Positions 11,768 to 64,000 of a stretch of 64,000 nucleotides of DNA are shown here, piece after piece; within the stretch, counting starts at the first letter, position 1; the number at the start of each line of letters is the position of its first letter. The DNA lies in NCBI RefSeq assembly GCF_963853765.1, contig NC_088861.1, forward strand, positions 21,292,281-21,356,280, in the 5' to 3' direction. The position numbers were made by a program, and so were the translations under genes. This stretch comes from Magallana gigas (lineage: Eukaryota). Under the pieces are notes generated by a model, which saw only the letters and a list, made by a program, of their open reading frames with translations, was not told the DNA's origin and made no database searches.

Positions 11768-11827
11768 CGATATCGGCAGTCTTACTCTCACAGTATCCTG
11801 AATCACGGCCTAAAAAATTGGGTGAAT
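11768..11827. other. Second copy of the non-satellite ~60 bp segment, copied as part of the 5.77 kb HOR; it differs from the first copy only by one fewer A in the A-run
   Basis: It is identical in sequence and monomer context to 6004-6063 and lies 5764 bp downstream. Confidence 0.7.
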
Positions 11828-40100: not shown

Positions 40101-43100
40101 GGGCCACAGTAGGGGGATCAAGTTTTACATAGCAATATATAGAGAACATTTTTAAACTTTCTTCTCAAAAACTATGACGCCAGGAAAGCTCAAATTAAAA
40201 TAGAAGCATCCTCAGGAAGTGAATATTCTTGTTTGTTCAAATCATGGTCCCCGGGGGTAGGGTTGGGCCACAGTAGGGGGATCAAGTTTTACATAGGAAT
40301 ATATAGAGAAAATCTTTAAACTTTCTTCCCAAAAACTATGACGCCAGGAAAGCTCAAAATAAAACGGAAGCATCCTCAGAAAATGAATATTCTTGTTTGT
40401 TCAAATCATGGTCCCCGGGGGGAGGGATGGGCCACAGTAGGGGGATCAAGTTTTACATAGGAGTATATAGAGAAAATCTTTAAACTTTCTTCTCAAAAAC
40501 TATGACACCAAAAAAGCCCAAATTAAAATGGAAGCATCCTCTGGTAGTGTAGATTTTAGTTTGTTCAAATCATGGTCCCCGGGGCTAGGGTTGGGCCACA
40601 GTAGGGGGATCAAGTTTTACATAGGAATATATAGAGAAAATTTTTAAACTTTCTTCTCAAAAACTATGACGCCAGGAAAGCTCAAATTAAAATGGAAGCA
40701 TCCTCAGGAACTGAATATTCTTGTTTGTTCAAATCATGGTCCCCGGGGGTAGGGTTGGGCCACAGTAGGGGGATCAAGTTTTACATAGGAATATATAGAG
40801 AAAATCTTTAAACTTTCTTTTCAAAAACAATGACGCCAGTAAAGCTCAAATTAAAATGGAAGCATTCTCAGAAAGTGAATATTCTTGTTTGTTCAAATTA
40901 TGGTCCCCGGGGGTAGGGTTGGGCCACAGTAGGGGGATCAAGTTTTACATAGGAATATATAGAGAAAATCTTTGAACTTTCTTCCCAAAGACTATGACGC
41001 AAGGAAAGCTCAAATTAAAATGGAAGTATCCTCTGGTAGTGTAGATTTTTGTTTGTTCAAATCATGGTCCCCGGGGGTAGGGTTGGGCCACAGTAGGGGG
41101 ATCAAGTTTTACATAGGAATATATAGAGAAAATCTTTAAACTTTCTTCTCAAAAACTATGACGCCAGGAAAGCTCAAATTAAAATAGAAGCATCCTCAGG
41201 TAGTGTAGATTTAAGTTTGTTTAAATCATGGTCCCCGGGGGTAGGTTTGGGCCACAGTAGGGGGATGAAGTTTTACATAGGAATATATAGAGAAAATCTG
41301 TAAACTTTCTTCTCAAAATCAATGACGCCAGGAAAGCTCAAATTCAATTGGAAGCATCCTCAGGTAATGTACATTTTAGTTTGTTCAAATCATGGTCCCC
41401 GGGGGAAGGGTTGGGCCACAGTAGGGGGATCAAGTTTTACATAGGAATATATAGAGAAAATCTTTAAACTTTCTTCTCAAAAACTATGACGCCAGGAAAG
41501 CTCAAATTAAAATGGAAGCATCCTCAGGTAGTGTAGATTTTAGTTTGTTCAAATCATGGTCCCCGGGGGTAGGGTTGGGCCACAGTAGGGGGATCAAGTT
41601 TTACATAGAAATATATAGAGAAAATCTTTAGACTTTCTTCTAAAAAACTATGACGCCAGGAAAGCTCAAATTAAAATGGAAGCATCCTCAGGTAGTGTAG
41701 ATTTTAGTTTGTTCAAATTATGGTCCCTGGATGTAGGGTAGGGCCACAGTATGGGGTTCAAGATTTACTTAGAGATATAGAGAAAATCTTTAAACTTTCT
41801 TCTCAAACACTATGACGCCAGGAAAGCTCAAATTAAAATGGAAGCATCCTCAGGTAGTGTAGATTTTAGTTTGTTCAAATCATGGTCCCCAGGGGTAGGG
41901 TTGGGCCACAGTAGGGGGATCAAGTTTTACTTAGGAATATATAGAGAAAATCTTTATACATTCTTCGATAAAACTATGACGCCAGGAAAGCTCAAATTAA
42001 AATGGAAGCATCCTCAGGTAGTGTAGATTTTAGTTTGCACAGTAGGGGGATCAAGGAATATATAGAGAAAATCTTTAAACTTTCTTCTCAAAAACTATGA
42101 CGCCAGGAAAGCTCAAATTAAAATGGAAGCATCCTCAGGTAGTGTAGGTTTTAATTTGTTCAAATCATGGTCCCCGGGGGTAGGGTTGGGCCACAGTAGA
42201 GGGATCAAGTTTTTCATAGGAATATATAGAGAAAATCTTTCAACTTTCTTCTCAAAAACTATGGCGCCAGGAAAGCTCAAATTAAAATGGAAGCATCCTC
42301 AGATAGAGTAGATTTTAGTTTGTTCAAATCATGGTCCCCGGGGGTAGGTTTGGGCCACAGTAGGGGGTTCAACTTTTACATAGGAATATATAGAGAAAAT
42401 CTTTAAACTTTCTTCTCAAAAACTATGACGCCAGGAAAGCTCAAATTAAAATGGAAGCATCCTCAGGAAGTGAATATTCTTGTTTATTCAAATCATGGCC
42501 CCCGGATGTAGGGTAGGGCAACAGTAGGGGGATCAAGTTTTACGTAGGAATATATATAGAGGAAATCTGTAAACTTTCTTCTCAAAAACTATGACGCCAG
42601 GAAAGCTCAAATTAAAATGGAAGCATCCTCAGGTAGTGTAGATTTAAGTTTGTTCAAATCGTGGTCGTCGGGGGTAGGGTTGGGCAACAGTAGGGGGATC
42701 AACTTTTATTTAGGAATATATAGAGAAAATCTGTAAACTTTCTTCTCAAAAACTATGACGCCAGGAAAGCTCAAATTCAAATGGAAGCATCCTCAGGAAG
42801 TGAATATTCTTGTTTGTTCAAATTAAGGTCCCCCGGGGTAGGGTTGGGCCACAGTAGGGGGATCAAGTTTTACATAGGAGTATATAGAGAAAATCTTTAA
42901 ACTTTCTTCTCAAAAACTATGACGCCAGGAAAGCTAAAATTAAAATGGAAGTATCCTCTGGTAGTGTAGATTTTAGTTTGTTCAAATCATGGTCCCCGGG
43001 GGTAGGGTTGGGCCACAGTAGGGGGATCAAGTTTTACATAGGAATATATAGAGAACATTTTTAAACTTTCTTCTCAAAAACTATGACGCCAGGAAAGCTC

Positions 43101-45530
43101 AAATTAAAATAGAAGCATCCTCAGGAAGTGAATATTCTTGTATGTTCAAATCATGGTCCCCGGGGGTAGGGTTGGGCCACAGTAGGGGGATCAAGTTTTA
43201 CATAGGAATATATAGAGAAAATCTTTAAACTTTCTTCCCAAAAACTATGACGCCAGGAAAGCTCAAAATAAAACGGAAGCATCCTCAGAAAATGAATATT
43301 CTTGTTTGTTCAAATCATGGTCCCCGGGGGAAGGGATGGGCCACAGTAGGGGGATCAAGTTTTACATAGGAGTATATAGAGAAAATCTTTAAACTTTCTT
43401 CTCAAAAACTATGACACCAAAAAAGCCCAAATTAAAATGGAAGCATCCTCTGGTAGTGTAGATTTTAGTTTGTTCAAATCATGGTCCCCGGGGCTAGGGT
43501 TGGGCCACAGTAGGGGGATCAAGTTTTACATAGGAATATATAGAGAAAATTTTTAAACTTTCTTCTCAAAAACTATGACGCAAGGAAAGCTCAAATTAAA
43601 ATGGAAGCATCCTCAGGAACTGAATATTCTTGTTTGTTCAAATCATGGTCCCCGGGGGTAGGGTTGGGCCACAGTAGGGGGATCAAGTTTTACATAGGAA
43701 TATATAGAGAAAATCTTTAAACTTTCTTTTCAAAAACAATGACGCCAGTAAAGCTCAAATTAAAATGGAAGCATTCTCAGAAAGTGAATATTCTTGTTTG
43801 TTCAAATTATGGTCCCCGGGGGTAGGGTTGGGCCACAGTAGGGGGATCAAGTTTTACATAGGAATATATAGAGAAAATCTTTGAACTTTCTTCCCAAAGA
43901 CTATGACGCAAGGAAAGCTCAAATTAAAATGGAAGTATCCTCTGGTAGTGTAGATTTTTGTTTGTTCAAATCATGGTCCCCGGGGGTAGGGTTGGGCCAC
44001 AGTAGGGGGATCAAGTTTTACATAGGAATATATAGAGAAAATCTTTAAACTTTCTTCTCAAAAACTATGACGCCAGGAAAGCTCAAATTAAAATAGAAGC
44101 ATCCTCAGGTAGTGTAGATTTAAGTTTGTTCAAATCATGGTCCCCGGGGGTAGGTTTTGGCCACAGTAGGGGGATGAAGTTTTACATAGGAATATATAGA
44201 GAAAATCTGTAAACTTTCTTCTCAAAAACAATGACGCCAGGAAAGCTCAAATTCAAATGGAAGCATCCTCAGGTAATGTAGATTTTAGTTTGTTCAAATC
44301 ATGGTCCCCGGGGGAAGGGTTGGGCCACAGTAGGGGGATCAAGTTTTACATAGGAATATATAGAGAAAATCTTTAAACTTTCTTCTCAAAAACTATGACG
44401 CCAGGAAAGCTCAAATTAAAATGGAAGCATCCTCAGGTAGTGTAGATTTTAGTTTGTTCAAATCATGGTCCCCGGGGGTAGGGTAGGGCCACAGTAGGGG
44501 GATCAAGTTTTACATAGAAATATATAGAGAAAATCTTTAGACTTTCTTCTAAAAAACTATGACGACAGGAAAACTCAAATTAAAATGGAAGCATCCTCAG
44601 GTAGGGTAGATTTTAGTTTGTTCAAATCATGGTCCCCGGGGGTAGATTTGGGCCACAGTAGGGGGATCAAGTTTTACTTAGGAATATATAGAGGAAATCT
44701 TTAAACATTCATCAAAAAAACTATGACGCCTGGAAAGCTCAAATTAAAATGGAAGCATCCTCAGGTAGTGTAGATTTTAGTTTGTTCAAATTATGGTCCC
44801 TGGATGTAGGGTAGGGCCACAGTATGGGGTTCAAGATTTACTTAGAGATATAGAGAAAATCTTTAAACTTTCTTCTCAAACACTATGACGCCAGGAAAGC
44901 TCAAATTAAAATGGAAGCATCCTCAGGTAGTGTAGATTTTAGTTTGTTCAAATCATGGTCCCCAGGGGTAGGGTTGGGCCACAGTAGGGGGATCAAGTTT
45001 TACTTAGGAATATATAGAGAAAATCTTTATACATTCTTCGATAAAACTATGACGCCAGGAAAGCTCAAATTAAAATGGAAGCATCCTCAGGTAGTGTAGA
45101 TTTTAGTTTGCACAGTAGGGGGATCAAGTTTTACATAGGAATATATAGAGAAAATCTGTAAACTTTCTTCTCAAAAACTATGACGCCAGGAAAGCTCAAA
45201 TTAAAATGGAAGCATCCTCAGGTAGTGTAGATTTTAGTTTGTTCAAATCATGGTCCCCGGGGGTAGGGTAGGGCCACAGGTGGGGGATCAAGTTTTACAT
45301 AGGAATATATAGAGAAAATCTGTAAACTTTCTTCTCAAAAACTATGACGCCAGGAAAGCTCAAATTCAAATGGAAGCATCCTCAGGAAGTGAATATTCTT
45401 GTTTGTTCAAATCATGGTCCCCGGATGTAGGGTAGGGCCACAGGAGGGGGATCAAGTTTTACATAGGAGTATAGAGAGAAAATCTTTAAACTTTCTTCTC
45501 AAAAACTATGACGCCAGGAAAGCTCAAATT
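34190..45530. repeat. Segmental duplication, copy 2: duplicate of 14410-25750
   Basis: Same evidence as copy 1. The left junction at ~34190-34200 lies inside the conserved stretch ATTCTCAGAAAGTGAATATTCTTGTTTGTTCAAAT, where sequence of the 28500 type (AAATCATGG) switches to sequence of the 14400 type (AAATTATGG). The right junction at ~45530 is where GAAGCATCCTCAGGTAGTG replaces GAAGTATCCTCTGGTAGTG. Confidence 0.85.
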
Positions 45531-46023
45531 AAAATGGAAGCATCCTCAGGTAGTGTAGATTTTAGTTTGTTCAAATCATGGTCCCCGGGGGTAGGGTAGG
45601 GCCACAGTAGGGGGATCAAGTTTTACATAGAAATATATAGAGAAAATCTTTAGACTTTCTTCTAAAAAACTATGACGACAGGAAAACTCAAATTAAAATG
45701 GAAGCATCCTCAGGTAGGGTAGATTTTAGTTTGTTCAAATCATGGTCCCCGGGGGTAGATTTGGGCCACAGTAGGGGGATCAAGTTTTACTTAGGAATAT
45801 ATAGAGGAAATCTTTAAACATTCATCAAAAAAACTATGACGCCTGGAAAGCTCAAATTAAAATGGAAGCATCCTCAGGTAGTGTAGATTTTAGTTTGTTC
45901 AAATTATGGTCCCTGGATGTAGGGTAGGGCCACAGTATGGGGTTCAAGATTTACTTAGAGATATAGAGAAAATCTTTAAACTTTCTTCTCAAACACTATG
46001 ACGCCAGGAAAGCTCAAATTAAA
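44911..46023. repeat. Local 1113 bp tandem reduplication with a chimeric junction monomer at about 45530-45600
   Basis: Marker pair B1/A occurs at 44911/45399 and again at 46024/46512. The 45399 ORF is a truncated chimera (A-type start, B-type end). After ~45560 the sequence returns to the TTAGACTTTC monomer that is also found at ~44521. Confidence 0.65.
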
Positions 46024-49000
46024 ATGGAAGCATCCTCAGGTAGTGTAGATTTTAGTTTGTTCAAATCATGGTCCCCAGGGGTAGGGTTGGGCCACAGTAG
46101 GGGGATCAAGTTTTACTTAGGAATATATAGAGAAAATCTTTATACATTCTTCGATAAAACTATGACGCCAGGAAAGCTCAAATTAAAATGGAAGCATCCT
46201 CAGGTAGTGTAGATTTTAGTTTGCACAGTAGGGGGATCAAGTTTTACATAGGAATATATAGAGAAAATCTGTAAACTTTCTTCTCAAAAACTATGACGCC
46301 AGGAAAGCTCAAATTAAAATGGAAGCATCCTCAGGTAGTGTAGATTTTAGTTTGTTCAAATCATGGTCCCCGGGGGTAGGGTAGGGCCACAGGTGGGGGA
46401 TCAAGTTTTACATAGGAATATATAGAGAAAATCTGTAAACTTTCTTCTCAAAAACTATGACGCCAGGAAAGCTCAAATTCAAATGGAAGCATCCTCAGGA
46501 AGTGAATATTCTTGTTTGTTCAAATCATGGTCCCCGGATGTAGGGTAGGGCCACAGGAGGGGGATCAAGTTTTACATAGGAGTATAGAGAGAAAATCTTT
46601 AAACTTTCTTCTCAAAAACTATGACGCCAGGAAAGCTCAAATTAAAATGGAAGAATCCTCAGGTAGTGTAGATTTTAGTTTGTTCAAATCATGGTCCCCG
46701 GAGGTAGGGTTGGGCCACAGTAGGGGGATCAAGTTTTACATAGGAATATATAGAGAAAATCTGTAAACTTTCTTCTCAAAAACTATGACGCCAGGAAAGC
46801 TCAAATTAAAATGGAAGCATCCTCAGGAAGTGAATATTCTTGTTTATTCAAATCATGGCCTCCGGATGTAGGGTAGGGCAACAGTAGGGGGATCAAGTTT
46901 TACGTAGGAATATATATAGAGAAAATCTGTAAACTTTCTTCTCAAAAACTATGACGCCAGGAAAGCTCAAATTAAAATGGAAGCATCCTCAGGTAGTGTA
47001 GATTTAAGTTTGTTCAAATCGTGGTCGTCGGGGGTAGGGTTGGGCAACAGTAGGGGGATCAACTTTTATTTAGGAATATATAGAGAAAATCTGTAAACTT
47101 TCTTCTCAAAAACTATGACGCCAGGAAAGCTCAAATTCAAATGGAAGCATCCTCAGGAAGTGAATATTCTTGTTTGTTCAAATTAAGGTCCCCCGGGGTA
47201 GGGTTGGGCCACAGTAGGGGGATCAAGTTTTACATAGGAGTATATAGAGAAAATCTTTAAACTTTCTTCTCAAAAACTATGACGTCAGGAAAGCTCAAAT
47301 TAAAATGGAAGTATCCTCTGGTAGTGTAGATTTTAGTTTGTTCAAATCATGGTCCCCGGGGGTAGGGTTGGGCCACAGTAGGGGGATCAAGTTTTACATA
47401 GCAATATATAGAGAACATTTTTAAACTTTCTTCTCAAAAACTATGACGCCAGGAAAGCTCAAATTAAAATAGAAGCATCCTCAGGAAGTGAATATTCTTG
47501 TATGTTCAAATCATGGTCCCCGGGGGTAGGGTTGGGCCACAGTAGGGGGATCAAGTTTTACATAGGAATATATAGAGAAAATCTTTAAACTTTCTTCCCA
47601 AAAACTATGACGCCAGGAAAGCTCAAAATAAAACGGAAGCATCCTCAGAAAATGAATATTCTTGTTTGTTCAAATCATGGTCCCCGGGGGAAGGGATGGG
47701 CCACAGTAGGGGGATCAAGTTTTACATAGGAGTATATAGAGAAAATCTTTAAACTTTCTTCTCAAAAACTATGACACCAAAAAAGCCCAAATTAAAATGG
47801 AAGCATCCTCTGGTAGTGTAGATTTTAGTTTGTTCAAATCATGGTCCCCGGGGCTAGGGTTGGGCCACAGTAGGGGGATCAAGTTTTACATAGGAATATA
47901 TAGAGAAAATTTTTAAACTTTCTTCTCAAAAACTATGACGCCAGGAAAGCTCAAATTAAAATGGAAGCATCCTCAGGAACTGAATATTCTTGTTTGTTCA
48001 AATCATGGTCCCCGGGGGTAGGGTTGGGCCACAGTAGGGGGATCAAGTTTTACATAGGAATATATAGAGAAAATCTTTAAACTTTCTTTTCAAAAACAAT
48101 GACGCCAGTAAAGCTCAAATTAAAATGGAAGCATTCTCAGAAAGTGAATATTCTTGTTTGTTCAAATTATGGTCCCCGGGGGTAGGGTTGGGCCACAGTA
48201 GGGGGATCAAGTTTTACATAGGAATATATAGAGAAAATCTTTGAACTTTCTTCCCAAAGACTATGACGCAAGGAAAGCTCAAATTAAAATGGAAGTATCC
48301 TCTGGTAGTGTAGATTTTTGTTTGTTCAAATCATGGTCCCCGGGGGTAGGGTTGGGCCACAGTAGGGGGATCAAGTTTTACATAGGAATATATAGAGAAA
48401 ATCTTTAAACTTTCTTCTCAAAAACTATGACGCCAGGAAAGCTCAAATTAAAATAGAAGCATCCTCAGGTAGTGTAGATTTAAGTTTGTTTAAATCATGG
48501 TCCCCGGGGGTAGGTTTGGGCCACAGTAGGGGGATGAAGTTTTACATAGGAATATATAGAGAAAATCTGTAAACTTTCTTCTCAAAAACAATGACGCCAG
48601 GAAAGCTCAAATTCAATTGGAAGCATCCTCAGGTAATGTACATTTTAGTTTGTTCAAATCATGGTCCCCGGGGGAAGGGTTGGGCCACAGTAGGGGGATC
48701 AAGTTTTACATAGGAATATATAGAGAAAATCTTTAAACTTTCTTCTCAAAAACTATGACGCCAGGAAAGCTCAAATTAAAATGGAAGCATCCTCAGGTAG
48801 TGTAGATTTTAGTTTGTTCAAATCATGGTCCCCGGGGGTAGGGTTGGGCCACAGTAGGGGGATCAAGTTTTACATAGAAATATATAGAGAAAATCTTTAG
48901 ACTTTCTTCTAAAAAACTATGACGACAGGAAAACTCAAATTAAAATGGAAGCATCCTCAGGTAGGGTAGATTTTAGTTTGTTCAAATCATGGTCCCCGGG

Positions 49001-51684
49001 GGTAGATTTGGGCCACAGTAGGGGGATCAAGTTTTACTTAGGAATATATAGAGAAAATCTTTAAACATTCATCAAAAAAACTATGACGCCAGGAAAGCTC
49101 AAATTAAAATGGAAGCATCCTCAGGTAGTGTAGATTTTAGTTTGTTCAAATTATGGTCCCTGGATGTAGGGTTGGGCCACAGTATGGGGTTCAAGATTTA
49201 CTTAGAGATATAGAGAAAATCTTTAAACTTTCTTCTCAAACACTATGACGCCAGGAAAGCTCAAATTAAAATGGAAGCATCCTCAGGTAGTGTAGATTTT
49301 AGTTTGTTCAAATCATGGTCCCCAGGGGTAGGGTTGGGCCACAGTAGGGGGATCAAGTTTTACTTAGGAATATATAGAGAAAATCTTTATACATTCTTCG
49401 ATAAAACTATGACGCCAGGAAAGCTCAAATTAAAATGGAAGCATCCTCAGGTAGTGTAGATTTTAGTTTGCACAGTAGGGGGATCAAGGAATATATAGAG
49501 AAAATCTTTAAACTTTCTTCTCAAAAACTATGACGCCAGGAAAGCTCAAATTAAAATGGAAGCATCCTCAGGTAGTGTAGGTTTTAATTTGTTCAAATCA
49601 TGGTCCCCGGGGGTAGGGTTGGGCCACAGTAGAGGGATCAAGTTTTTCATAGGAATATATAGAGAAAATCTTTCAACTTTCTTCTCAAAAACTATGGCGC
49701 CAGGAAAGCTCAAATTAAAATGGAAGCATCCTCAGGTAGAGTAGATTTTAGTTTGTTCAAATCATGGTCCCCGGGGGTAGGTTTGGGCCACAGTAGGGGG
49801 TTCAACTTTTACATAGGAATATATAGAGAAAATCTTTAAACTTTCTTCTCAAAAACTATGACGCCAGGAAAGCTCAAATTAAAATGGAAGCATCCTCAGG
49901 TAGTGTAAATTTTAGTTTGTTCAAATCATGGTCCCCGGGGGTAGGGTTGGGCCACAGTAGGGGGATCAAGTTTTACATAAGAATATATAGAGAAAATCTG
50001 TAAACTTTCTTTTCAAAAACTATGACGCCAGGAAAGCTCAAATTAAAATGGAAGCATTCTCAGAAAGTGAATATTCTTGTTTGTTCAAATCATGGTCCCC
50101 GGGGGTAGGGTTGGGCCACAGTAGGGGGATCAAGTTTTACATAGGAATATATAGAGAAAATCTGTCAACTTTCTTCTCAAAAACTATGACGCCAGGAAAA
50201 CTCAAATTAAAATGGAAGCATCCTCTGGTAGTATAGATTTTAGTTTGTTCAAATCATGGTCCCCGGGGGTAGAGTTGGGCCACAGTAGGGGGATCAAGTT
50301 TTACTTAGGAATATATACAGAAAATCTTTAAACTTTCTTCTCAAAAACTATGACGCCAGGAAAGCTCAAATTAAAATGGAAGCATCCTCAGGTAGTGTAG
50401 ATTTTAGTTTGTTCAAATCATGGTCCCCGGGGCTAGGGTTGGGCCACAGTAGGGGGATCAAGTTTTACATAGGAATATATAGAGAAAATCTGTAAACTTT
50501 CTTCTCAAAAACTATGACGCCAGGAAAGCTCAAATTAAAATGGAAGCATCCTCAGGAAGTGAATATTCTTGTTTGTTCAAATCATGGTCCCCGGATGTAG
50601 GGTAGGGCCACAGGAGGGGGATCAAGTTTTACTTAACAATATATACAGAAAATCTTTAAACATTCTTCTCAAAAACTATGACGCCAAGAAAGCTCAAATT
50701 CAAATGGAAGCATCCTCAGGTAGAGTAGATTTAGTTTGTTCAAATCATGGTCCCCGGGGGTAGGGTTGGGCCACAGTAGGGGGATCAAGTTTTACATAGG
50801 AATATATAGAGAAAATCTTTAAACTTTCTTCTCAAAAACTATGACGCCAGGAAAGCTCAAATTAAAATAGAAGCATCCTCAGGTAGTGTAGATTTAAGTT
50901 TGTTCAAATCATGGTCCCCGGGGGTAGGTTTTGGCCACAGTAGGGGGATGAAGTTTTACATAGGAATATATAGAGAAAATCTGTAAACTTTCTTCTCAAA
51001 AACAATGACGCCAGGAAAGCTCAAATTCAAATGGAAGCATCCTCAGGTAATGTAGATTTTAGTTTGTTCAAATCATGGTCCCCGGGGGAAGGGTTGGGCC
51101 ACAGTAGGGGGATCAAGTTTTACATAGGAATATATAGAGAAAATCTTTAAACTTTCTTCTCAAAAACTATGACGCCAGGAAAGCTCAAATTAAAATGGAA
51201 GCATCCTCAGGTAGTGTAGATTTTAGTTTGTTCAAATCATGGTCCCCGGGGGTAGGGTAGGGCCACAGTAGGGGGATCAAGTTTTACATAGAAATATATA
51301 GAGAAAATCTTTAGACTTTCTTCTAAAAAACTATGACGACAGGAAAACTCAAATTAAAATGGAAGCATCCTCAGGTAGGGTAGATTTTAGTTTGTTCAAA
51401 TCATGGTCCCCGGGGGTAGATTTGGGCCACAGTAGGGGGATCAAGTTTTACTTAGGAATATATAGAGGAAATCTTTAAACATTCATCAAAAAAACTATGA
51501 CGCCTGGAAAGCTCAAATTAAAATGGAAGCATCCTCAGGTAGTGTAGATTTTAGTTTGTTCAAATTATGGTCCCTGGATGTAGGGTAGGGCCACAGTATG
51601 GGGTTCAAGATTTACTTAGAGATATAGAGAAAATCTTTAAACTTTCTTCTCAAACACTATGACGCCAGGAAAGCTCAAATTAAA
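46024..51684. repeat. 5661 bp HOR copy 1 (phase defined from the 33-bp-deleted marker monomer)
   Basis: Marker order within the unit is B1(0), A(+488), G(+995), T(+2867), B2(+3247), C(+3532), D(+4024), E(+4545), T(+5277). Confidence 0.8.
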
Positions 51685-54600
51685 ATGGAAGCATCCTCAG
51701 GTAGTGTAGATTTTAGTTTGTTCAAATCATGGTCCCCAGGGGTAGGGTTGGGCCACAGTAGGGGGATCAAGTTTTACTTAGGAATATATAGAGAAAATCT
51801 TTATACATTCTTCGATAAAACTATGACGCCAGGAAAGCTCAAATTAAAATGGAAGCATCCTCAGGTAGTGTAGATTTTAGTTTGCACAGTAGGGGGATCA
51901 AGTTTTACATAGGAATATATAGAGAAAATCTGTAAACTTTCTTCTCAAAAACTATGACGCCAGGAAAGCTCAAATTAAAATGGAAGCATCCTCAGGTAGT
52001 GTAGATTTTAGTTTGTTCAAATCATGGTCCCCGGGGGTAGGGTAGGGCCACAGTAGGGGGATCAAGTTTTACATAGGAATATATAGAGAAAATCTGTAAA
52101 CTTTCTTCTCAAAAACTATGACGCCAGGAAAGCTCAAATTCAAATGGAAGCATCCTCAGGAAGTGAATATTCTTGTTTGTTCAAATCATGGTCCCCGGAT
52201 GTAGGGTAGGGCCACAGGAGGGGGATCAAGTTTTACATAGGAGTATAGAGAGAAAATCTTTAAACTTTCTTCTCAAAAACTATGACGCCAGGAAAGCTCA
52301 AATTAAAATGGAAGAATCCTCAGGTAGTGTAGATTTTAGTTTGTTCAAATCATGGTCCCCGGAGGTAGGGTTGGGCCACAGTAGGGGGATCAAGTTTTAC
52401 ATAGGAATATATAGAGAAAATCTGTAAACTTTCTTCTCAAAAACTATGACGCCAGGAAAGCTCAAATTAAAATGGAAGCATCCTCAGGAAGTGAATATTC
52501 TTGTTTATTCAAATCATGGCCCCCGGATGTAGGGTAGGGCAACAGTAGGGGGATCAAGTTTTACGTAGGAATATATATAGAGAAAATCTGTAAACTTTCT
52601 TCTCAAAAACTATGACGCCAGGAAAGCTCAAATTAAAATGGAAGCATCCTCAGGTAGTGTAGATTTAAGTTTGTTCAAATCGTGGTCGTCGGGGGTAGGG
52701 TTGGGCAACAGTAGGGGGATCAACTTTTATTTAGGAATATATAGAGAAAATCTGTAAACTTTCTTCTCAAAAACTATGACGCCAGGAAAGCTCAAATTCA
52801 AATGGAAGCATCCTCAGGAAGTGAATATTCTTGTTTGTTCAAATTAAGGTCCCCCGGGGTAGGGTTGGGCCACAGTAGGGGGATCAAGTTTTACATAGGA
52901 GTATATAGAGAAAATCTTTAAACTTTCTTCTCAAAAACTATGACGCCAGGAAAGCTCAAATTAAAATGGAAGTATCCTCTGGTAGTGTAGATTTTAGTTT
53001 GTTCAAATCATGGTCCCCGGGGGTAGGGTTGGGCCACAGTAGGGGGATCAAGTTTTACATAGCAATATATAGAGAACATTTTTAAACTTTCTTCTCAAAA
53101 ACTATGACGCCAGGAAAGCTCAAATTAAAATAGAAGCATCCTCAGGAAGTGAATATTCTTGTATGTTCAAATCATGGTCCCCGGGGGTAGGGTTGGGCCA
53201 CAGTAGGGGGATCAAGTTTTACATAGGAATATATAGAGAAAATCTTTAAACTTTCTTCCCAAAAACTATGACGCCAGGAAAGCTCAAAATAAAACGGAAG
53301 CATCCTCAGAAAATGAATATTCTTGTTTGTTCAAATCATGGTCCCCGGGGGAAGGGATGGGCCACAGTAGGGGGATCAAGTTTTACATAGGAGTATATAG
53401 AGAAAATCTTTAAACTTTCTTCTCAAAAACTATGACACCAAAAAAGCCCAAATTAAAATGGAAGCATCCTCTGGTAGTGTAGATTTTAGTTTGTTCAAAT
53501 CATGGTCCCCGGGGCTAGGGTTGGGCCACAGTAGGGGGATCAAGTTTTACATAGGAATATATAGAGAAAATTTTTAAACTTTCTTCTCAAAAACTATGAC
53601 GCCAGGAAAGCTCAAATTAAAATGGAAGCATCCTCAGGAACTGAATATTCTTGTTTGTTCAAATCATGGTCCCCGGGGGTAGGGTTGGGCCACAGTAGGG
53701 GGATCAAGTTTTACATAGGAATATATAGAGAAAATCTTTAAACTTTCTTTTCAAAAACAATGACGCCAGTAAAGCTCAAATTAAAATGGAAGCATTCTCA
53801 GAAAGTGAATATTCTTGTTTGTTCAAATTATGGTCCCCGGGGGTAGGGTTGGGCCACAGTAGGGGGATCAAGTTTTACATAGGAATATATAGAGAAAATC
53901 TTTGAACTTTCTTCCCAAAGACTATGACGCAAGGAAAGCTCAAATTAAAATGGAAGTATCCTCTGGTAGTGTAGATTTTTGTTTGTTCAAATCATGGTCC
54001 CCGGGGGTAGGGTTGGGCCACAGTAGGGGGATCAAGTTTTACATAGGAATATATAGAGAAAATCTTTAAACTTTCTTCTCAAAAACTATGACGCCAGGAA
54101 AGCTCAAATTAAAATAGAAGCATCCTCAGGTAGTGTAGATTTAAGTTTGTTTAAATCATGGTCCCCGGGGGTAGGTTTGGGCCACAGTAGGGGGATGAAG
54201 TTTTACATAGGAATATATAGAGAAAATCTGTAAACTTTCTTCTCAAAAACAATGACGCCAGGAAAGCTCAAATTCAATTGGAAGCATCCTCAGGTAATGT
54301 ACATTTTAGTTTGTTCAAATCATGGTCCCCGGGGGAAGGGTTGGGCCACAGTAGGGGGATCAAGTTTTACATAGGAATATATAGAGAAAATCTTTAAACT
54401 TTCTTCTCAAAAACTATGACGCCAGGAAAGCTCAAATTAAAATGGAAGCATCCTCAGGTAGTGTAGATTTTAGTTTGTTCAAATCATGGTCCCCGGGGGT
54501 AGGGTTGGGCCACAGTAGGGGGATCAAGTTTTACATAGAAATATATAGAGAAAATCTTTAGACTTTCTTCTAAAAAACTATGACGACAGGAAAACTCAAA

Positions 54601-57345
54601 TTAAAATGGAAGCATCCTCAGGTAGGGTAGATTTTAGTTTGTTCAAATCATGGTCCCCGGGGGTAGATTTGGGCCACAGTAGGGGGATCAAGTTTTACTT
54701 AGGAATATATAGAGAAAATCTTTAAACATTCATCAAAAAAACTATGACGCCAGGAAAGCTCAAATTAAAATGGAAGCATCCTCAGGTAGTGTAGATTTTA
54801 GTTTGTTCAAATTATGGTCCCTGGATGTAGGGTAGGGCCACAGTATGGGGTTCAAGATTTACTTAGAGATATAGAGAAAATCTTTAAACTTTCTTCTCAA
54901 ACACTATGACGCCAGGAAAGCTCAAATTAAAATGGAAGCATCCTCAGGTAGTGTAGATTTTAGTTTGTTCAAATCATGGTCCCCAGGGGTAGGGTTGGGC
55001 CACAGTAGGGGGATCAAGTTTTACTTAGGAATATATAGAGAAAATCTTTATACATTCTTCGATAAAACTATGACGCCAGGAAAGCTCAAATTAAAATGGA
55101 AGCATCCTCAGGTAGTGTAGATTTTAGTTTGCACAGTAGGGGGATCAAGGAATATATAGAGAAAATCTGTAAACTTTCTTCTCAAAAACTATGACGCCAG
55201 GAAAGCTCAAATTAAAATGGAAGCATCCTCAGGTAGTGTAGGTTTTAATTTGTTCAAATCATGGTCCCTGGGGGTAGGGTTGGGCCACAGTAGAGGGATC
55301 AAGTTTTTCATAGGAATATATAGAGAAAATCTTTCAACTTTCTTCTCAAAAACTATGGCGCCAGGAAAGCTCAAATTAAAATGGAAGCATCCTCAGGTAG
55401 AGTAGATTTTAGTTTGTTCAAATCATGGTCCCCGGGGGTAGGTTTGGGCCACAGTAGGGGGTTCAACTTTTACATAGGAATATATAGAGAAAATCTTTAA
55501 ACTTTCTTCTCAAAAACTATGACGCCAGGAAAGCTCAAATTAAAATGGAAGCATCCTCAGGTAGTGTAAATTTTAGTTTGTTCAAATCATGGTCCCCGGG
55601 GGTAGGGTTGGGCAACAGTAGGGGGATCAAGTTTTACATAAGAATATATAGAGAAAATCTGTAAACTTTCTTTTCAAAAACTATGACGCCAGGAAAGCTC
55701 AAATTAAAATGGAAGCATTCTCAGAAAGTGAATATTCTTGTTTGTTCAAATCATGGTCCCCGGGGGTAGGGTTGGGCCACAGTAGGGGGATCAAGTTTTA
55801 CATAGGAATATATAGAGAAAATCTGTCAACTTTCTTCTCAAAAACTATGACGCCAGGAAAACTCAAATTAAAATGGAAGTATCCTCTGGTAGTATAGATT
55901 TTAGTTTGTTCAAATCATGGTCCCCGGGGGTAGAGTTGGGCCACAGTAGGGGGATCAAGTTTTACTTAGGAATATATACAGAAAATCTTTAAACTTTCTT
56001 CTCAAAAACTATGACGCCAGGAAAGCTCAAATTAAAATGGAAGCATCCTCAGGTAGTGTAGATTTTAGTTTGTTCAAATCATGGTCCCCGGGGCTAGGGT
56101 TGGGCCACAGTAGGGGGATCAAGTTTTACATAGGAATATATAGAGAAAATCTGTAAACTTTCTTCTCAAAAACTATGACGCCAGGAAAGCTCAAATTAAA
56201 ATGGAAGCATCCTCAGGAAGTGAATATTCTTGTTTGTTCAAATCATGGTCCCCGGATGTAGGGTAGGGCCACAGGAGGGGGATCAAGTTTTACTTAACAA
56301 TATATACAGAAAATCTTTAAACATTCTTCTCAAAAACTATGACGCCAAGAAAGCTCAAATTCAAATGGAAGCATCCTCAGGTAGAGTAGATTTAGTTTGT
56401 TCAAATCATGGTCCCCGGGGGTAGGGTTGGGCCACAGTAGGGGGATCAAGTTTTACATAGGAATATATAGAGAAAATCTTTAAACTTTCTTCTCAAAAAC
56501 TATGACGCCAGGAAAGCTCAAATTAAAATAGAAGCATCCTCAGGTAGTGTAGATTTAAGTTTGTTCAAATCATGGTCCCCGGGGGTAGGTTTTGGCCACA
56601 GTAGGGGGATGAAGTTTTACATAGGAATATATAGAGAAAATCTGTAAACTTTCTTCTCAAAAACAATGACGCCAGGAAAGCTCAAATTCAAATGGAAGCA
56701 TCCTCAGGTAATGTAGATTTTAGTTTGTTCAAATCATGGTCCCCGGGGGAAGGGTTGGGCCACAGTAGGGGGATCAAGTTTTACATAGGAATATATAGAG
56801 AAAATCTTTAAACTTTCTTCTCAAAAACTATGACGCCAGGAAAGCTCAAATTAAAATGGAAGCATCCTCAGGTAGTGTAGATTTTAGTTTGTTCAAATCA
56901 TGGTCCCCGGGGGTAGGGTAGGGCCACAGTAGGGGGATCAAGTTTTACATAGAAATATATAGAGAAAATCTTTAGACTTTCTTCTAAAAAACTATGACGA
57001 CAGGAAAACTCAAATTAAAATGGAAGCATCCTCAGGTAGGGTAGATTTTAGTTTGTTCAAATCATGGTCCCCGGGGGTAGATTTGGGCCACAGTAGGGGG
57101 ATCAAGTTTTACTTAGGAATATATAGAGGAAATCTTTAAACATTCATCAAAAAAACTATGACGCCTGGAAAGCTCAAATTAAAATGGAAGCATCCTCAGG
57201 TAGTGTAGATTTTAGTTTGTTCAAATTATGGTCCCTGGATGTAGGGTAGGGCCACAGTATGGGGTTCAAGATTTACTTAGAGATATAGAGAAAATCTTTA
57301 AACTTTCTTCTCAAACACTATGACGCCAGGAAAGCTCAAATTAAA
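51685..57345. repeat. 5661 bp HOR copy 2
   Basis: Same marker order at the same offsets as copy 1; near-identical sequence. Confidence 0.8.
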
Positions 57346-60300
57346 ATGGAAGCATCCTCAGGTAGTGTAGATTTTAGTTTGTTCAAATCATGGTCCCCAG
57401 GGGTAGGGTTGGGCCACAGTAGGGGGATCAAGTTTTACTTAGGAATATATAGAGAAAATCTTTATACATTCTTCGATAAAACTATGACGCCAGGAAAGCT
57501 CAAATTAAAATGGAAGCATCCTCAGGTAGTGTAGATTTTAGTTTGCACAGTAGGGGGATCAAGTTTTACATAGGAATATATAGAGAAAATCTGTAAACTT
57601 TCTTCTCAAAAACTATGACGCCAGGAAAGCTCAAATTAAAATGGAAGCATCCTCAGGTAGTGTAGATTTTAGTTTGTTCAAATCATGGTCCCCGGGGGTA
57701 GGGTAGGGCCACAGTAGGGGGATCAAGTTTTACATAGGAATATATAGAGAAAATCTGTAAACTTTCTTCTCAAAAACTATGACGCCAGGAAAGCTCAAAT
57801 TCAAATGGAAGCATCCTCAGGAAGTGAATATTCTTGTTTGTTCAAATCATGGTCCCCGGATGTAGGGTAGGGCCACAGGAGGGGGATCAAGTTTTACATA
57901 GGAGTATAGAGAGAAAATCTTTAAACTTTCTTCTCAAAAACTATGACGCCAGGAAAGCTCAAATTAAAATGGAAGAATCCTCAGGTAGTGTAGATTTTAG
58001 TTTGTTCAAATCATGGTCCCCGGAGGTAGGGTTGGGCCACAGTAGGGGGATCAAGTTTTACATAGGAATATATAGAGAAAATCTGTAAACTTTCTTCTCA
58101 AAAACTATGACGCCAGGAAAGCTCAAATTAAAATGGAAGCATCCTCAGGAAGTGAATATTCTTGTTTATTCAAATCATGGCCCCCGGATGTAGGGTAGGG
58201 CAACAGTAGGGGGATCAAGTTTTACGTAGGAATATATATAGAGAAAATCTGTAAACTTTCTTCTCAAAAACTATGACGCCAGGAAAGCTCAAATTAAAAT
58301 GGAAGCATCCTCAGGTAGTGTAGATTTAAGTTTGTTCAAATCGTGGTCGTCGGGGGTAGGGTTGGGCAACAGTAGGGGGATCAACTTTTATTTAGGAATA
58401 TATAGAGAAAATCTGTAAACTTTCTTCTCAAAAACTATGACGCCAGGAAAGCTCAAATTCAAATGGAAGCATCCTCAGGAAGTGAATATTCTTGTTTGTT
58501 CAAATTAAGGTCCCCCGGGGTAGGGTTGGGCCACAGTAGGGGGATCAAGTTTTACATAGGAGTATATAGAGAAAATCTTTAAACTTTCTTCTCAAAAACT
58601 ATGACGCCAGGAAAGCTCAAATTAAAATGGAAGTATCCTCTGGTAGTGTAGATTTTAGTTTGTTCAAATCATGGTCCCCGGGGGTAGGGTTGGGCCACAG
58701 TAGGGGGATCAAGTTTTACATAGCAATATATAGAGAACATTTTTAAACTTTCTTCTCAAAAACTATGACGCCAGGAAAGCTCAAATTAAAATAGAAGCAT
58801 CCTCAGGAAGTGAATATTCTTGTATGTTCAAATCATGGTCCCCGGGGGTAGGGTTGGGCCACAGTAGGGGGATCAAGTTTTACATAGGAATATATAGAGA
58901 AAATCTTTAAACTTTCTTCCCAAAAACTATGACGCCAGGAAAGCTCAAAATAAAACGGAAGCATCCTCAGAAAATGAATATTCTTGTTTGTTCAAATCAT
59001 GGTCCCCGGGGGAAGGGATGGGCCACAGTAGGGGGATCAAGTTTTACATAGGAGTATATAGAGAAAATCTTTAAACTTTCTTCTCAAAAACTATGACACC
59101 AAAAAAGCCCAAATTAAAATGGAAGCATCCTCTGGTAGTGTAGATTTTAGTTTGTTCAAATCATGGTCCCCGGGGCTAGGGTTGGGCCACAGTAGGGGGA
59201 TCAAGTTTTACATAGGAATATATAGAGAAAATTTTTAAACTTTCTTCTCAAAAACTATGACGCCAGGAAAGCTCAAATTAAAATGGAAGCATCCTCAGGA
59301 ACTGAATATTCTTGTTTGTTCAAATCATGGTCCCCGGGGGTAGGGTTGGGCCACAGTAGGGGGATCAAGTTTTACATAGGAATATATAGAGAAAATCTTT
59401 AAACTTTCTTTTCAAAAACAATGACGCCAGTAAAGCTCAAATTAAAATGGAAGCATTCTCAGAAAGTGAATATTCTTGTTTGTTCAAATTATGGTCCCCG
59501 GGGGTAGGGTTGGGCCACAGTAGGGGGATCAAGTTTTACATAGGAATATATAGAGAAAATCTTTGAACTTTCTTCCCAAAGACTATGACGCAAGGAAAGC
59601 TCAAATTAAAATGGAAGTATCCTCTGGTAGTGTAGATTTTTGTTTGTTCAAATCATGGTCCCCGGGGGTAGGGTTGGGCCACAGTAGGGGGATCAAGTTT
59701 TACATAGGAATATATAGAGAAAATCTTTAAACTTTCTTCTCAAAAACTATGACGCCAGGAAAGCTCAAATTAAAATAGAAGCATCCTCAGGTAGTGTAGA
59801 TTTAAGTTTGTTTAAATCATGGTCCCCGGGGGTAGGTTTGGGCCACAGTAGGGGGATGAAGTTTTACATAGGAATATATAGAGAAAATCTGTAAACTTTC
59901 TTCTCAAAAACAATGACGCCAGGAAAGCTCAAATTCAATTGGAAGCATCCTCAGGTAATGTACATTTTAGTTTGTTCAAATCATGGTCCCCGGGGGAAGG
60001 GTTGGGCCACAGTAGGGGGATCAAGTTTTACATAGGAATATATAGAGAAAATCTTTAAACTTTCTTCTCAAAAACTATGACGCCAGGAAAGCTCAAATTA
60101 AAATGGAAGCATCCTCAGGTAGTGTAGATTTTAGTTTGTTCAAATCATGGTCCCCGGGGGTAGGGTTGGGCCACAGTAGGGGGATCAAGTTTTACATAGA
60201 AATATATAGAGAAAATCTTTAGACTTTCTTCTAAAAAACTATGACGACAGGAAAACTCAAATTAAAATGGAAGCATCCTCAGGTAGGGTAGATTTTAGTT

Positions 60301-62095
60301 TGTTCAAATCATGGTCCCCGGGGGTAGATTTGGGCCACAGTAGGGGGATCAAGTTTTACTTAGGAATATATAGAGAAAATCTTTAAACATTCATCAAAAA
60401 AACTATGACGCCAGGAAAGCTCAAATTAAAATGGAAGCATCCTCAGGTAGTGTAGATTTTAGTTTGTTCAAATTATGGTCCCTGGATGTAGGGTAGGGCC
60501 ACAGTATGGGGTTCAAGATTTACTTAGAGATATAGAGAAAATCTTTAAACTTTCTTCTCAAACACTATGACGCCAGGAAAGCTCAAATTAAAATGGAAGC
60601 ATCCTCAGGTAGTGTAGATTTTAGTTTGTTCAAATCATGGTCCCCAGGGGTAGGGTTGGGCCACAGTAGGGGGATCAAGTTTTACTTAGGAATATATAGA
60701 GAAAATCTTTATACATTCTTCGATAAAACTATGACGCCAGGAAAGCTCAAATTAAAATGGAAGCATCCTCAGGTAGTGTAGATTTTAGTTTGCACAGTAG
60801 GGGGATCAAGGAATATATAGAGAAAATCTGTAAACTTTCTTCTCAAAAACTATGACGCCAGGAAAGCTCAAATTAAAATGGAAGCATCCTCAGGTAGTGT
60901 AGGTTTTAATTTGTTCAAATCATGGTCCCTGGGGGTAGGGTTGGGCCACAGTAGAGGGATCAAGTTTTTCATAGGAATATATAGAGAAAATCTTTCAACT
61001 TTCTTCTCAAAAACTATGGCGCCAGGAAAGCTCAAATTAAAATGGAAGCATCCTCAGGTAGAGTAGATTTTAGTTTGTTCAAATCATGGTCCCCGGGGGT
61101 AGGTTTGGGCCACAGTAGGGGGTTCAACTTTTACATAGGAATATATAGAGAAAATCTTTAAACTTTCTTCTCAAAAACTATGACGCCAGGAAAGCTCAAA
61201 TTAAAATGGAAGCATCCTCAGGTAGTGTAAATTTTAGTTTGTTCAAATCATGGTCCCCGGGGGTAGGGTTGGGCCACAGTAGGGGGATCAAGTTTTACAT
61301 AAGAATATATAGAGAAAATCTGTAAACTTTCTTTTCAAAAACTATGACGCCAGGAAAGCTCAAATTAAAATGGAAGCATTCTCAGAAAGTGAATATTCTT
61401 GTTTGTTCAAATCATGGTCCCCGGGGGTAGGGTTGGGCCACAGTAGGGGGATCAAGTTTTACATAGGAATATATAGAGAAAATCTGTCAACTTTCTTCTC
61501 AAAAACTATGACGCCAGGAAAACTCAAATTAAAATGGAAGTATCCTCTGGTAGTATAGATTTTAGTTTGTTCAAATCATGGTCCCCGGGGGTAGAGTTGG
61601 GCCACAGTAGGGGGATCAAGTTTTACTTAGGAATATATACAGAAAATCTTTAAACTTTCTTCTCAAAAACTATGACGCCAGGAAAGCTCAAATTAAAATG
61701 GAAGCATCCTCAGGTAGTGTAGATTTTAGTTTGTTCAAATCATGGTCCCCGGGGCTAGGGTTGGGCCACAGTAGGGGGATCAAGTTTTACATAGGAATAT
61801 ATAGAGAAAATCTGTAAACTTTCTTCTCAAAAACTATGACGCCAGGAAAGCTCAAATTAAAATGGAAGCATCCTCAGGAAGTGAATATTCTTGTTTGTTC
61901 AAATCATGGTCCCCGGATGTAGGGTAGGGCCACAGGAGGGGGATCAAGTTTTACTTAGCAATATATACAGAAAATCTTTAAACATTCTTCTCAAAAACTA
62001 TGACGCCAAGAAAGCTCAAATTCAAATGGAAGCATCCTCAGGTAGAGTAGATTTAGTTTGTTCAAATCATGGTCCCCGGGGGTAGGGTTGGGCCA
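57346..62095. repeat. 5661 bp HOR copy 3, canonical up to ~62095 and then replaced by a 985 bp HOR
   Basis: Markers sit at canonical offsets through E (61891). At ~62095 the sequence GGGGGTTCAACTTTTACAT replaces the canonical GGGGGATCAAGTTTTACAT and the register jumps back about 985 bp. Confidence 0.7.
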
Positions 62096-64000
62096 CAGTA
62101 GGGGGTTCAACTTTTACATAGGAATATATAGAGAAAATCTTTAAACTTTCTTCTCAAAAACTATGGCACCAGGAAAGCTCAAATTAAAATGGAAGCATCC
62201 TCAGGTAGAGTAGATTTTAGTTTGTTCAAATCATGGTCCCCGGGGGGTAGGGTTGGGCTGCAGTAGGGGTATCAAGTATTACATAGGAATATATAGAGAA
62301 AATCTGTAAACTTTCTCTTCATAAACTATGACGCCAGGAAAGCTCAAATTAAAATGAATGCATTCTCAGAAAGTGAATATTCTTGTTTGTTCAAATTATG
62401 GTCCCCGGGGGTAGGGTTGGGCCACAGTAGGGGGGTCAAGTTTTACATAGGAATATATAGAGAAAATCTGTCAGCTTTCTTCTCAAAAACTATGACGCCA
62501 GGAAAGCTCAAATTAAAATGGAAGTATCCTCTGGTAGTATAGATTTTAGTTTGTTCAAATCATGGTCCCCGGGGGTAGAGTTGGGCCACAGTAGGGGGAT
62601 CAAGTTTTACTTAGGAATATATACAGAAAATCTTTAAACTTTCTTCTCAAAAACTATGACGCCAGGAAAGCTCAAATTAAAATGGAAGCATCCTCAGGTA
62701 GTGTAGATTTTAGTCTGTTCAAATCATGGTCCCCGGGGGTAGGGTAGGGCCACAGTAGGGGGATCAAGTTTTACATAGGAATATATAGAGAAAATCTGTA
62801 AACTTTCTTCTCAAAAACTATGACGCCAGGAAAGCTCAAATTAAAATTGAAGCATCCTCAGGAAGTGAATATTCTTGTTTGTTCAAATCATGGTCCCCGG
62901 ATGTAGGGTAGGGCCACAGGAGGGGGATCAAGTTTTACTTAGGAATATATACAGAAAATCTTTAAACATTCTTCTCAAAAACTATGACGCCAAGAAAGCT
63001 CAAATTAAAATGGAAGCATCCTCAGGTAGAGTAGATTTAGTTTGTTCAAATCATGGTCCCCGGGGGTAGGGTTGGGCCACAGTAGGGGATTCAACTTTTA
63101 CATAGGAAAATATAGAGAAAATCTTTAAACTTTCTTCTCAAAAACTATGACGCCAGGAAAGCTCAAATTAAAATGGAAGCATCCTCAGGTAGTGTAGATT
63201 TCAGTTTGTTCAAATCATGGTCCCCGGGGGTAGGGTTGGGCTGCAGTAGGGGGATCAAGTATTACATAGGAATATATAGAGAAAATCTGTAAACTTTCTT
63301 TTCAAAAACTATGACGCCAGGAAAGCTCAAATTAAAATGAATGCATTCTCAGAAAGTGAATATTCTTGTTTGTTCAAATTATGGTCCCCGGGGGTAGGGT
63401 TGGGCCACAGTAGGGGGATCAAGTTTAACATAGGAATATATAGAGAAAATCTGTAAACTTTCTTCTCAAACACTATGACGCCAGGAAAGCTCAAATTAAA
63501 ATGAAAGCATCCTCAGGAAGTGAATATTCTTCTTTGTTCAAATCATGGTCCCCGGATGTAGGGTAGGGCCACAGTAGGGGGATCAAGTTTTACTTAGGAA
63601 TAAATAGAGAAAATCTGTAAACTTTCTTCTCGAAAACAATGACGCCAGGAAAGCTCAAATTAAAATGGAAGCATCCTCAGGTAGTGTAGATTTTAGTTTG
63701 TTCAAATCGTGGTCCCCAGGGGTAGGGTAGGGCCACAGTAGGGGGATCAAGTTTTACATAGAAATATATACAGAAAATCTTTAAACTTTCTTCTCAAAAA
63801 CTATGACGCCAGGAAAGCTCAAATTAAAATGGAAGCATCCTCAGGTAGTGTAGATTTTAGTTTGTTCAAATCATGGTCCCCGGGGGTAGGGTAGGGCCAC
63901 AGTAGGGGGATCAAGTTTTATATAGGAATATATAGAGAACATCTTTCAACTTTTTTCTCAAAAACTATGACGCCAGGAAAGCTCAAATTAAAATGGAAGC
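61110..64000. repeat. Short HOR: ~985 bp (6-monomer) unit in about 2.9 tandem copies at the 3' end of the window
   Basis: Marker ORFs at 61370/62354 and 61891/62875 are 984 bp apart. The variant ATGAATGCATTCTCAGAAAGTGAATATTC recurs at ~62354 and ~63340. GGGG(G/A)TTCAACTTTTACAT recurs at ~61110, ~62100 and ~63085. Confidence 0.7.

Follow-up and report, generated by a model that had tools for sequence, protein, structure and literature searches.

The stretch of DNA analyzed here, referred to as the window, comprises 64,000 nucleotides of the oyster Magallana gigas (C. gigas in the papers cited; contig NC_088861.1, positions 21,292,281 to 21,356,280). The whole of it, positions 1-64000, is a single head-to-tail array of a 164-bp satellite that is open at both ends. 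An initial annotation had pointed to 45560-62095 as three near-identical copies of a 5661-bp higher-order repeat (HOR) and had called them a recently homogenized core. Tandem Repeats Finder (TRF) gave a 164-bp period throughout the 64,000 bases, with units of 131 bp and 121 bp now and then. To delimit the monomers, we scanned the window with a conserved 25-mer as anchor, which occurs 393 times on the + strand and delimits 392 complete monomers. The anchor spacings were 164 bp (330 cases), 162-166 bp (45), 131 bp (8), 121 bp (7) and 184/185 bp (2). As all of them lie between 121 and 185 bp, the array is uninterrupted, has one orientation and is without inserted elements. The 392 monomers represent 131 distinct sequences with a mean pairwise identity of 92.2%. 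GC content is flat over the window (0.38-0.39), GC skew is positive and constant, and 44000-64000 yielded no long inverted repeats.

The satellite was identified by searching with monomer substrings among the consensus sequences that accompany the C. gigas satellitome study as a supplement (PMC8268682). The consensus of the window agreed with CgiSat01a at 162 of the 164 positions, the + strand of the window being the reverse complement of the published consensus. The 164-bp monomers (330 of the 392) showed 89.0-98.8% identity to CgiSat01a, with a mean of 94.8%, and alignment to the 166-bp CgiSat01b called for several indels and a large number of substitutions. In the Cg170/HindIII satellite DNA (satDNA), CgiSat01a is the variant of 164 bp and CgiSat01b that of 166 bp (PMC8268682), and the 164-bp variant is on record from C. 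gigas and C. angulata only (PMC11136912). Judged by its sequence, the array belongs to CgiSat01a (= CanSat01a), the 164-bp variant of this family. The HindIII site itself (AAGCTT) was present just once in the 64 kb, at 8287; the 164-bp variant has AAGCTC at that place.

The flagged tract has a second, much longer period. An all-lag scan matched 45401-56556 to 51062-62217 at a lag of 5661 bp with 99.78% identity, and trimming of this match at the level of single bases left 45475-56444 against 51136-62105 with zero indels. The tract itself therefore runs from 45475 to 62105, somewhat beyond both of the ends first proposed for it, and contains 2.94 tandem copies of the 5661-bp unit, or 102 consecutive monomers over which a fixed order is held. 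Past 62105, mismatches build up and a 1-bp indel breaks the HOR register. Copy 1 differed from copy 2 by 9 mismatches in 5661 bp (99.84%) and from copy 3 by 9 mismatches in 5258 bp (99.83%), while copies 2 and 3 differed by only 2 mismatches in 5258 bp (99.96%). When the blocks were cut as in the initial annotation, 46024-51684 and 51685-57345 differed at 9 of 5661 positions and 51685-56434 and 57346-62095 at 2 of 4750. The three near-identical copies it described are thus really present, with an exact period, more than 99% identity and no indels.

As a control for chance similarity, we compared 63,902 pairs of in-register 35-monomer runs within the window. Their median identity was 92.1% and their 99th percentile was 96.3%, as compared to the 99.84-99.96% of the HOR copies, and values of 99.5% or more were confined to four lags (35, 122, 133 and 168 monomers). 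The identity of the copies is far above chance and above that of random monomer runs. Adjacent monomers inside the unit were 88.3-100% identical (mean 92.3%), so the 5-15% divergence that had been given for neighbors was about right; over all within-unit pairs the range was 84-100% and the mean 92.5%. With monomers ~8% apart and multimer copies 0.04-0.16% apart, the tract is a genuine HOR. Altogether, the window holds 2.94 contiguous units here and 1.49 units at 25750-34153, which is not an array-wide homogeneous HOR. The description as a homogenized core was right in that the HOR is real; however, the tract is better seen as a small and very recent patch in a multi-scale mosaic, with a further HOR tract elsewhere in the window.

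Each 5661-bp unit consists of 35 monomers, of which 33 have full length (162-166 bp) and those at positions 01 and 21 measure 131 bp and 121 bp, respectively (Table 1). A 33-bp deletion (TTCAAATCATGGTCCCCGGGGGTAGATTTGGGC) is common to both of the short monomers, its junction being flanked by TTTTAGTTTG on the left and CACAGTAGGG on the right. The proposal that a 33-bp-deleted monomer occurs twice per unit was therefore correct as to the deletion, although the second of the two has lost a further 10 bp (121 bp vs 131 bp). The sequence TTAGACTTTC repeats at alternating spacings of 3247 bp and 2414 bp, and at the same two lags we found an internal duplication of 1196 bp (~7.3 monomers) with 98.0% identity and 23-24 mismatches. 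Monomer by monomer, positions 15-20 and positions 30-35 were 99-100% identical. Because a 7-monomer module has been duplicated, the 35-mer looks like a 20-mer and a 15-mer having that module in common. This duplication had been noticed before and called ancient, which is too strong a word, since at 2% divergence it is older than the HOR copies and much younger than the diversification of the monomers (~7.5%).

Table 1. Coordinates of the repeat units, duplications and joints (window numbering).
Feature	Position	Strand	Remarks
HOR copy 1 (haplotype alpha)	45475-51135	+	5661 bp; register of the lag-5661 match; no indels vs copy 2
HOR copy 2 (haplotype beta)	51136-56796	+	5661 bp; one private substitution, at 55614
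HOR copy 3 (haplotype beta)	56797-62105	+	5309 bp, ends inside monomer position 29; private substitution at 61958
131-bp monomer, position 01	46180-46310; again 51841-51971, 57502-57632	+	33-bp deletion, junction TTTG/CACAG near 46223/46224
121-bp monomer, position 21	49427-49547; again 55088-55208, 60749-60869	+	33-bp deletion and further 10-bp deletion
Internal duplication, arm 1	48309-49504	+	positions 15-20 and start of 21; partner 50723-51918
Internal duplication, arm 2	50723-51918	+	positions 30-35 and start of 01
Internal duplication in copy 2	53970-55165 with 56384-57579	+	56384-57579 also pairs with 59631-60826 in copy 3
Second HOR tract	25750-34153	+	52 monomers, positions 08-35 then 01-24; alpha-then-beta order as in the flagged tract
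Block S1	14378-25749	+	70 monomers of rearranged HOR pieces; second copy S2 at 34154-45525
Joint 03/07 to 08 (first super-repeat)	25699-25764	+	accounts for the 11-monomer (1771-bp) difference between super-repeats
Joint 24/25 to 13 (19.8-kb duplication)	34147-34204	+	58 bp identical in both parents
Joint 03 to 32 (left end of flagged tract)	45475-45540	+	66 bp identical in both parents
Diverged right end	62106-64000	+	6-monomer (984-bp) sub-repeat of positions 23-28 closes the homogeneous tract

To place the tract in the array as a whole, every monomer was assigned to its best HOR position with a penalty for jumps. Monomers 97-380 (16019-62017) were made up of the same 35 types in canonical order, broken by 13 jumps, and in most of these segments there were no more than 0.7 mismatches per monomer, with values of up to 4.8 in monomers 133-137, 209-214 and 215-218. 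The flagged tract is the longest HOR run that is free of jumps. Outside the HOR tracts, the monomer order jumps 39 times in what is a mosaic, and the first 16 kb and last 1.9 kb of the window contain more diverged variants, with 4-10 mismatches per monomer. At the right end, the copies of the 984-bp sub-repeat (62018-64000) are ~97% alike.

The HOR is not confined to the flagged tract. In the second HOR tract, 25750-29588 differed from copy 1 by 1 mismatch in 3839 bp, and 29589-34153 differed from copy 2 at 1 of 4565 positions and from copy 3 at none of 4565. Variable sites divide all of this material into two haplotypes: alpha, which is copy 1 together with 25750-29588, and beta, which is copies 2 and 3 together with 29589-34153. 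They differ at 8-9 sites, and 8 substitutions are common to copies 2 and 3 against copy 1. Two of the landmarks in the initial annotation were peptide strings in the translated sequence, and these were found as described: SWSL at 55259 and 60920, with none in copy 1, and KYPLVV at 55877 and 61538, the counterpart in copy 1 being KHPLVV (50216). Copies 2 and 3 are thus sisters, copy 1 is a distinct haplotype, and the shared substitutions do order the duplications, as had been proposed.

A larger repeat encloses these units. Block S1 and its second copy S2 differed by 3 mismatches in 11,372 bp (99.97%), and S1 together with 25750-34153 forms a super-repeat of 19,776 bp, or 122 monomers; the flagged HOR tract comes after the second super-repeat copy. 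This duplication (14378-34153 vs 34154-55700) is both larger and more similar than the 5661-bp repeat that had been flagged. In its HOR part the 11-monomer indel moves the lag to 21,547 bp. In addition, positions 1-2885 of the window are a third copy of the start of block S, with 99.7% identity to 14808-17692 and 99.6% to 34584-37468. The older left part of the window has a 35-monomer periodicity as well, made of partly different monomer variants: 4330-7142 matched 10094-12905 at a lag of 5764 bp with ~99.5% identity over 17 monomers.

We characterized three joints between repeat tracts (Table 1), placing each where similarity changes over from one parental sequence to the other. At the joint of the 19.8-kb duplication, the last mismatch distinguishing S1 is at 34146 and the first distinguishing copy 2 is at 34205. 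For the left end of the flagged tract the corresponding limits are 45474, where the sequence last departs from the +5661 copy, and 45541, where it first departs from the S1/canonical continuation. The three joints are independent, free of indels and in register with the monomers, and the stretch in which each of them falls, 58-66 bp long, is the same in both parents without a single mismatch. The monomers that were joined are also closest or near-closest paralogs: positions 25 and 13 are mutual best paralogs (96% identity), and the best paralog of position 07 is position 03 (95%). We considered a hybrid monomer at the left joint and rejected it; monomer 278 is of pure position-03 type, and the exchange lies within the shared 3' part. 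Types 03 and 31 are identical over their last 52 bp, at the 3' end.

Clean, in-register, homologous joints of this kind fit unequal homologous exchange, and they argue against end-joining and against transposition. Amplification of the HOR by unequal exchange, as the initial annotation had suggested, is therefore consistent with all three of them, and we take it to be the best reading. Several points weigh against it. What can be seen in the array are the end products, from which the mechanism is deduced. Break-induced replication (BIR) or template switching, or reintegration of a circular intermediate by homologous recombination, would leave the same clean joints, and so would an assembler that joined reads via identical repeats. 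Lastly, about three contiguous copies amount to a very local event and not to an HOR homogenized over the array.

The divergence values form a ladder: ~7.5% between monomers, 2.0% between the arms of the internal duplication, 0.16% between alpha and beta, 0.04% between copies 2 and 3, and 0.03% between S1 and S2. Read as a sequence of events, this ladder begins with the diversification of the monomers. A duplication of 7 monomers then turned a unit of ~20 monomers into the 35-mer. In the resulting 5661-bp HOR some 35 distinguishable monomer variants, two of them with the common 33-bp deletion, are now fixed in their order. The haplotypes alpha and beta diverged next. The beta unit was finally doubled, giving copies 2 and 3, and 122 monomers (19.8 kb) were duplicated in tandem. 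The joint of the 19.8-kb duplication lies within a beta unit, at position 24/25, and the most economical history therefore starts from an arrangement S-alpha-beta-beta that already existed. From there, a single unequal exchange in which a monomer of position 25 paired with one of position 13 could have duplicated the 122 monomers, and the 11-monomer (1771-bp) indel that sets the two super-repeat copies apart would have arisen afterwards.

More generally, these data suggest that paralogous monomers repeatedly undergo homologous exchange, out of register at the level of the HOR and in register at the level of the monomer, and that the array grows and is rearranged in this way. Such exchange may be unequal crossing-over between sister chromatids or homologs, or homology-driven template switching or BIR. 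Formation of an HOR by unequal exchange is in itself textbook knowledge and is ordinary behavior for a satellite array. In our judgment it is likely that the locus is a standalone CgiSat01a array with a 35-mer HOR that has been reshuffled by repeated homologous exchange.

One alternative is that the 5661-bp copy number, the 19.8-kb duplication or both were made or miscounted by the assembler, either by over-expansion of near-identical repeats or by setting two haplotypes of a heterozygous locus in tandem. The copies are indeed only 0-9 substitutions apart in 4.5-5.7 kb, with no difference at all in one pair over 4565 bp; however, the substitutions form consistent haplotypes, with the alpha/beta differences common to distant tracts and the private changes single, which is unlike random errors and speaks mildly against an artifact. 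Oyster haplotypes are usually ~1% or more apart. The 99.97% identity of the 19.8-kb copies is above what would be expected of such haplotypes, although these copies do differ mostly in structure (the 11-monomer indel and other HOR content downstream), as allelic satellite variants would. The joints lie in stretches of perfect identity, where false overlaps arise, and published oyster assemblies have gaps in exactly such arrays (PMC8268682); on the other hand, a structure that keeps its period exactly for 11 kb lies within what HiFi or Oxford Nanopore (ONT) reads can resolve. None of the points against an artifact is decisive, but we consider it unlikely.

A second alternative is that a circle of 5.66 kb, in the form of extrachromosomal circular DNA (eccDNA) or of a Helitron/Helentron-type intermediate, gave rise to a concatemer by rolling-circle replication and that this was reinserted in the array. 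Cg170/CgiSat01 repeats are carried by non-autonomous Helitron/Helentron elements, which are rolling-circle replicators and contain them as central arrays (PMC7492417, PMC8268682), but no element sequence, whether boxes or flanks, was present anywhere in the 64 kb. Copies 2 and 3 are nearly identical; however, the distances among the three copies are unequal. Copy 1 belongs to a separate and older haplotype that is present also at 25750-29588, and the tract was therefore built stepwise and in no single burst. The same array moreover has many joints of other sizes (7, 11, 20 and 122 monomers), for which one general process is more economical. We regard a rolling-circle origin as very unlikely.

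Open reading frames (ORFs) raise a third alternative, that of a functional cluster of tandem genes or RNAs, the copies of which owe their near-identity to selection instead of recent duplication. There are short ORFs of 55-84 aa on the + strand, and a profile built from them matched 219 database 'proteins'. The 164-bp period is not a multiple of 3, however, and shifts the frame with every monomer; in 45400-51100 there were nine ORFs of at least 50 aa, the longest being 84 aa, or ~1.5 monomers. Among the top 150 matches, 19 of the 20 inspected were short ORFs without functional annotation on metagenome or SRA contigs, and the only match named by organism, from Phaseolus, was an unrelated tandem repeat. 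With neighboring monomers ~8% apart, purifying selection on a product is inconsistent with the array, and the monomer has no fold signal; this idea can be given next to no credence.

The 219 matched 'proteins' are probably spurious ORFs on bivalve-type repeats in environmental and SRA assemblies. Two annotated hypothetical proteins of Phaseolus coccineus, KAK7327251.1 and KAK7327252.1 (944 and 1313 aa), are perfect repeats of an ~80-aa unit. Both probably arise from translation of a tandem DNA repeat; they are unrelated to the oyster satellite, and the profile match to them is weak (E = 7e-7). The 84-aa ORF of the window, used as a protein query, matched two anonymous ENA metagenome ORFs and nothing else.

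The array resembles what is known of Cg170/HindIII CgiSat01a (Clabby 1996; Lopez-Flores 2004; Tunjic-Cvitanic 2021, PMC8268682) in its 164-bp monomer and in its head-to-tail standalone organization, which has been described for more than 100 monomers. It differs in size. The longest standalone Cg170 array known in 2021 had 232 monomers, or ~40 kb with a gap inside (PMC8268682), whereas the window has at least 392 monomers in 64 kb and both of its ends are open. Repeats of the same family occur in the Helitron/Helentron-borne Cg_HINE, Helitron-N55_CGi and CvA/pearl, but element-borne arrays have ~5-6 monomers on average (maximum 89) and conserved flanking boxes, in contrast to the HOR without flanks within 64 kb that we found here.

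Primate alpha-satellite HORs, such as the 16-mer of D17Z1 and the 12-mer of DXZ1, are alike in having diverged, nucleosome-scale monomers (171 bp vs 164 bp in the oyster) in a fixed order, over 99% identity between multimer copies, HOR variants in which monomers have been lost or duplicated at in-register joints, and larger duplications in which these are nested. On the other hand, the oyster unit is a very long 35-mer with ~3 consecutive copies (4.4 units over the 64 kb) and not hundreds to thousands, its monomers diverge by ~8% within the unit as compared to 20-40%, and there is no sequence homology between the two. We know of no CENP-B box equivalent in the oyster satellite. Arabidopsis CEN178/180, the mouse minor satellite and Tribolium TCAST likewise have high-identity patches of several monomers in arrays that are 5-10% diverged, arising from unequal exchange. 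The local patches are shared with the oyster array, although the sequences are unrelated, and CENH3 occupancy measurements exist for the youngest patches of those other systems.

Among the oyster satellite papers that we text-searched for it, none mentions HOR organization, and reports outside the searched literature are possible. Targeted searches on telomere-to-telomere (T2T) or HOR oyster centromeres gave no account of HORs in Cg170. HOR organization in the known Cg170/CgiSat01a satellite has apparently not yet been described. Full-text searches found no papers containing monomer strings of 15-20 nt, and a search for 164-bp satellites with HORs led to Tribolium only.

Cg170 is the most abundant oyster satellite and is known mainly from short, dispersed, Helentron-borne arrays. 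By fluorescence in situ hybridization (FISH) it was located at the primary constrictions of 4-7 of the 10 chromosome pairs, with partial co-localization of CenH3 (PMC7348941). The ratio of CenH3 chromatin immunoprecipitation (ChIP) to Input for Cg170 was marginal (1.2-1.7), and the authors concluded that there are no centromere-specific repeats (PMC7348941). Because dispersed copies diluted the ChIP enrichment, the role of Cg170 at centromeres was left open. Any location of the present array on the chromosome, probably pericentromeric or centromeric, and any function are inferred. The initial annotation had drawn a parallel to active centromere cores.

One may speculate further that long CgiSat01a arrays with the 35-mer HOR are the CenH3-bound cores of some oyster centromeres, the youngest tract (45.5-62.1 kb) and its 19.8-kb super-repeat being the active site. 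We put this forward tentatively, and it seems rather doubtful. If it were true, oysters would have HOR centromeres of the alpha-satellite kind, against their description as being without centromere-specific satellites or classical long arrays, and such centromeres would be invisible to short-read ChIP, the same monomer being dispersed genome-wide in Helentrons. The 33-bp and 43-bp deletion junctions, the position-specific variants and the three joints provide markers that are specific for this locus. They would allow CenH3 ChIP, methylation data and long reads to be assigned to it, making the question of Cg170 at centromeres testable. As the nested events are very recent (0-0.16%), copy-number polymorphism between individuals is predicted, and this would be of use in studies of satellite turnover rates.

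Several features of single monomers were also observed. A G-quadruplex-like motif, GGGGG-NN-GGG-NN-GGG-CCACAGTA-GGGGG, is present in most full-length monomers (for example at 124-151); all 234 occurrences counted are on the + strand, with none on the - strand. In the short monomers, three of the four G-runs of this motif are lost with the 33-bp deletion. Dyad symmetry or a hairpin was considered as well and rejected, as the single-strand fold of the monomer was no better than that of shuffled sequences (z = 0.06).

Two monomers that are 35 monomers apart, of 185 bp (5972-6156) and 184 bp (11736-11919), carry a segment of ~62 bp (GAACGATATCGGCAGTCTTACTCTCACAGTATCCTGAATCACGGCC...) in place of the usual G-rich part. 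Neither the C. gigas satellitome consensus sequences nor the comparison loci that we fetched contained a match to this segment. Scans with the anchor gave 0 matches in JGI metagenomes and 0 in viral contigs, and a JGI scan with a degenerate core gave two chance matches only, on bacterial-type contigs. In the ENA, a 723-bp contig of ERZ8157676 contains a dispersed 161-bp relative with 82% identity amid non-satellite DNA, and a 542-bp contig of ERZ27264537 is this satellite itself, with 90.8% identity over 3.3 monomers.

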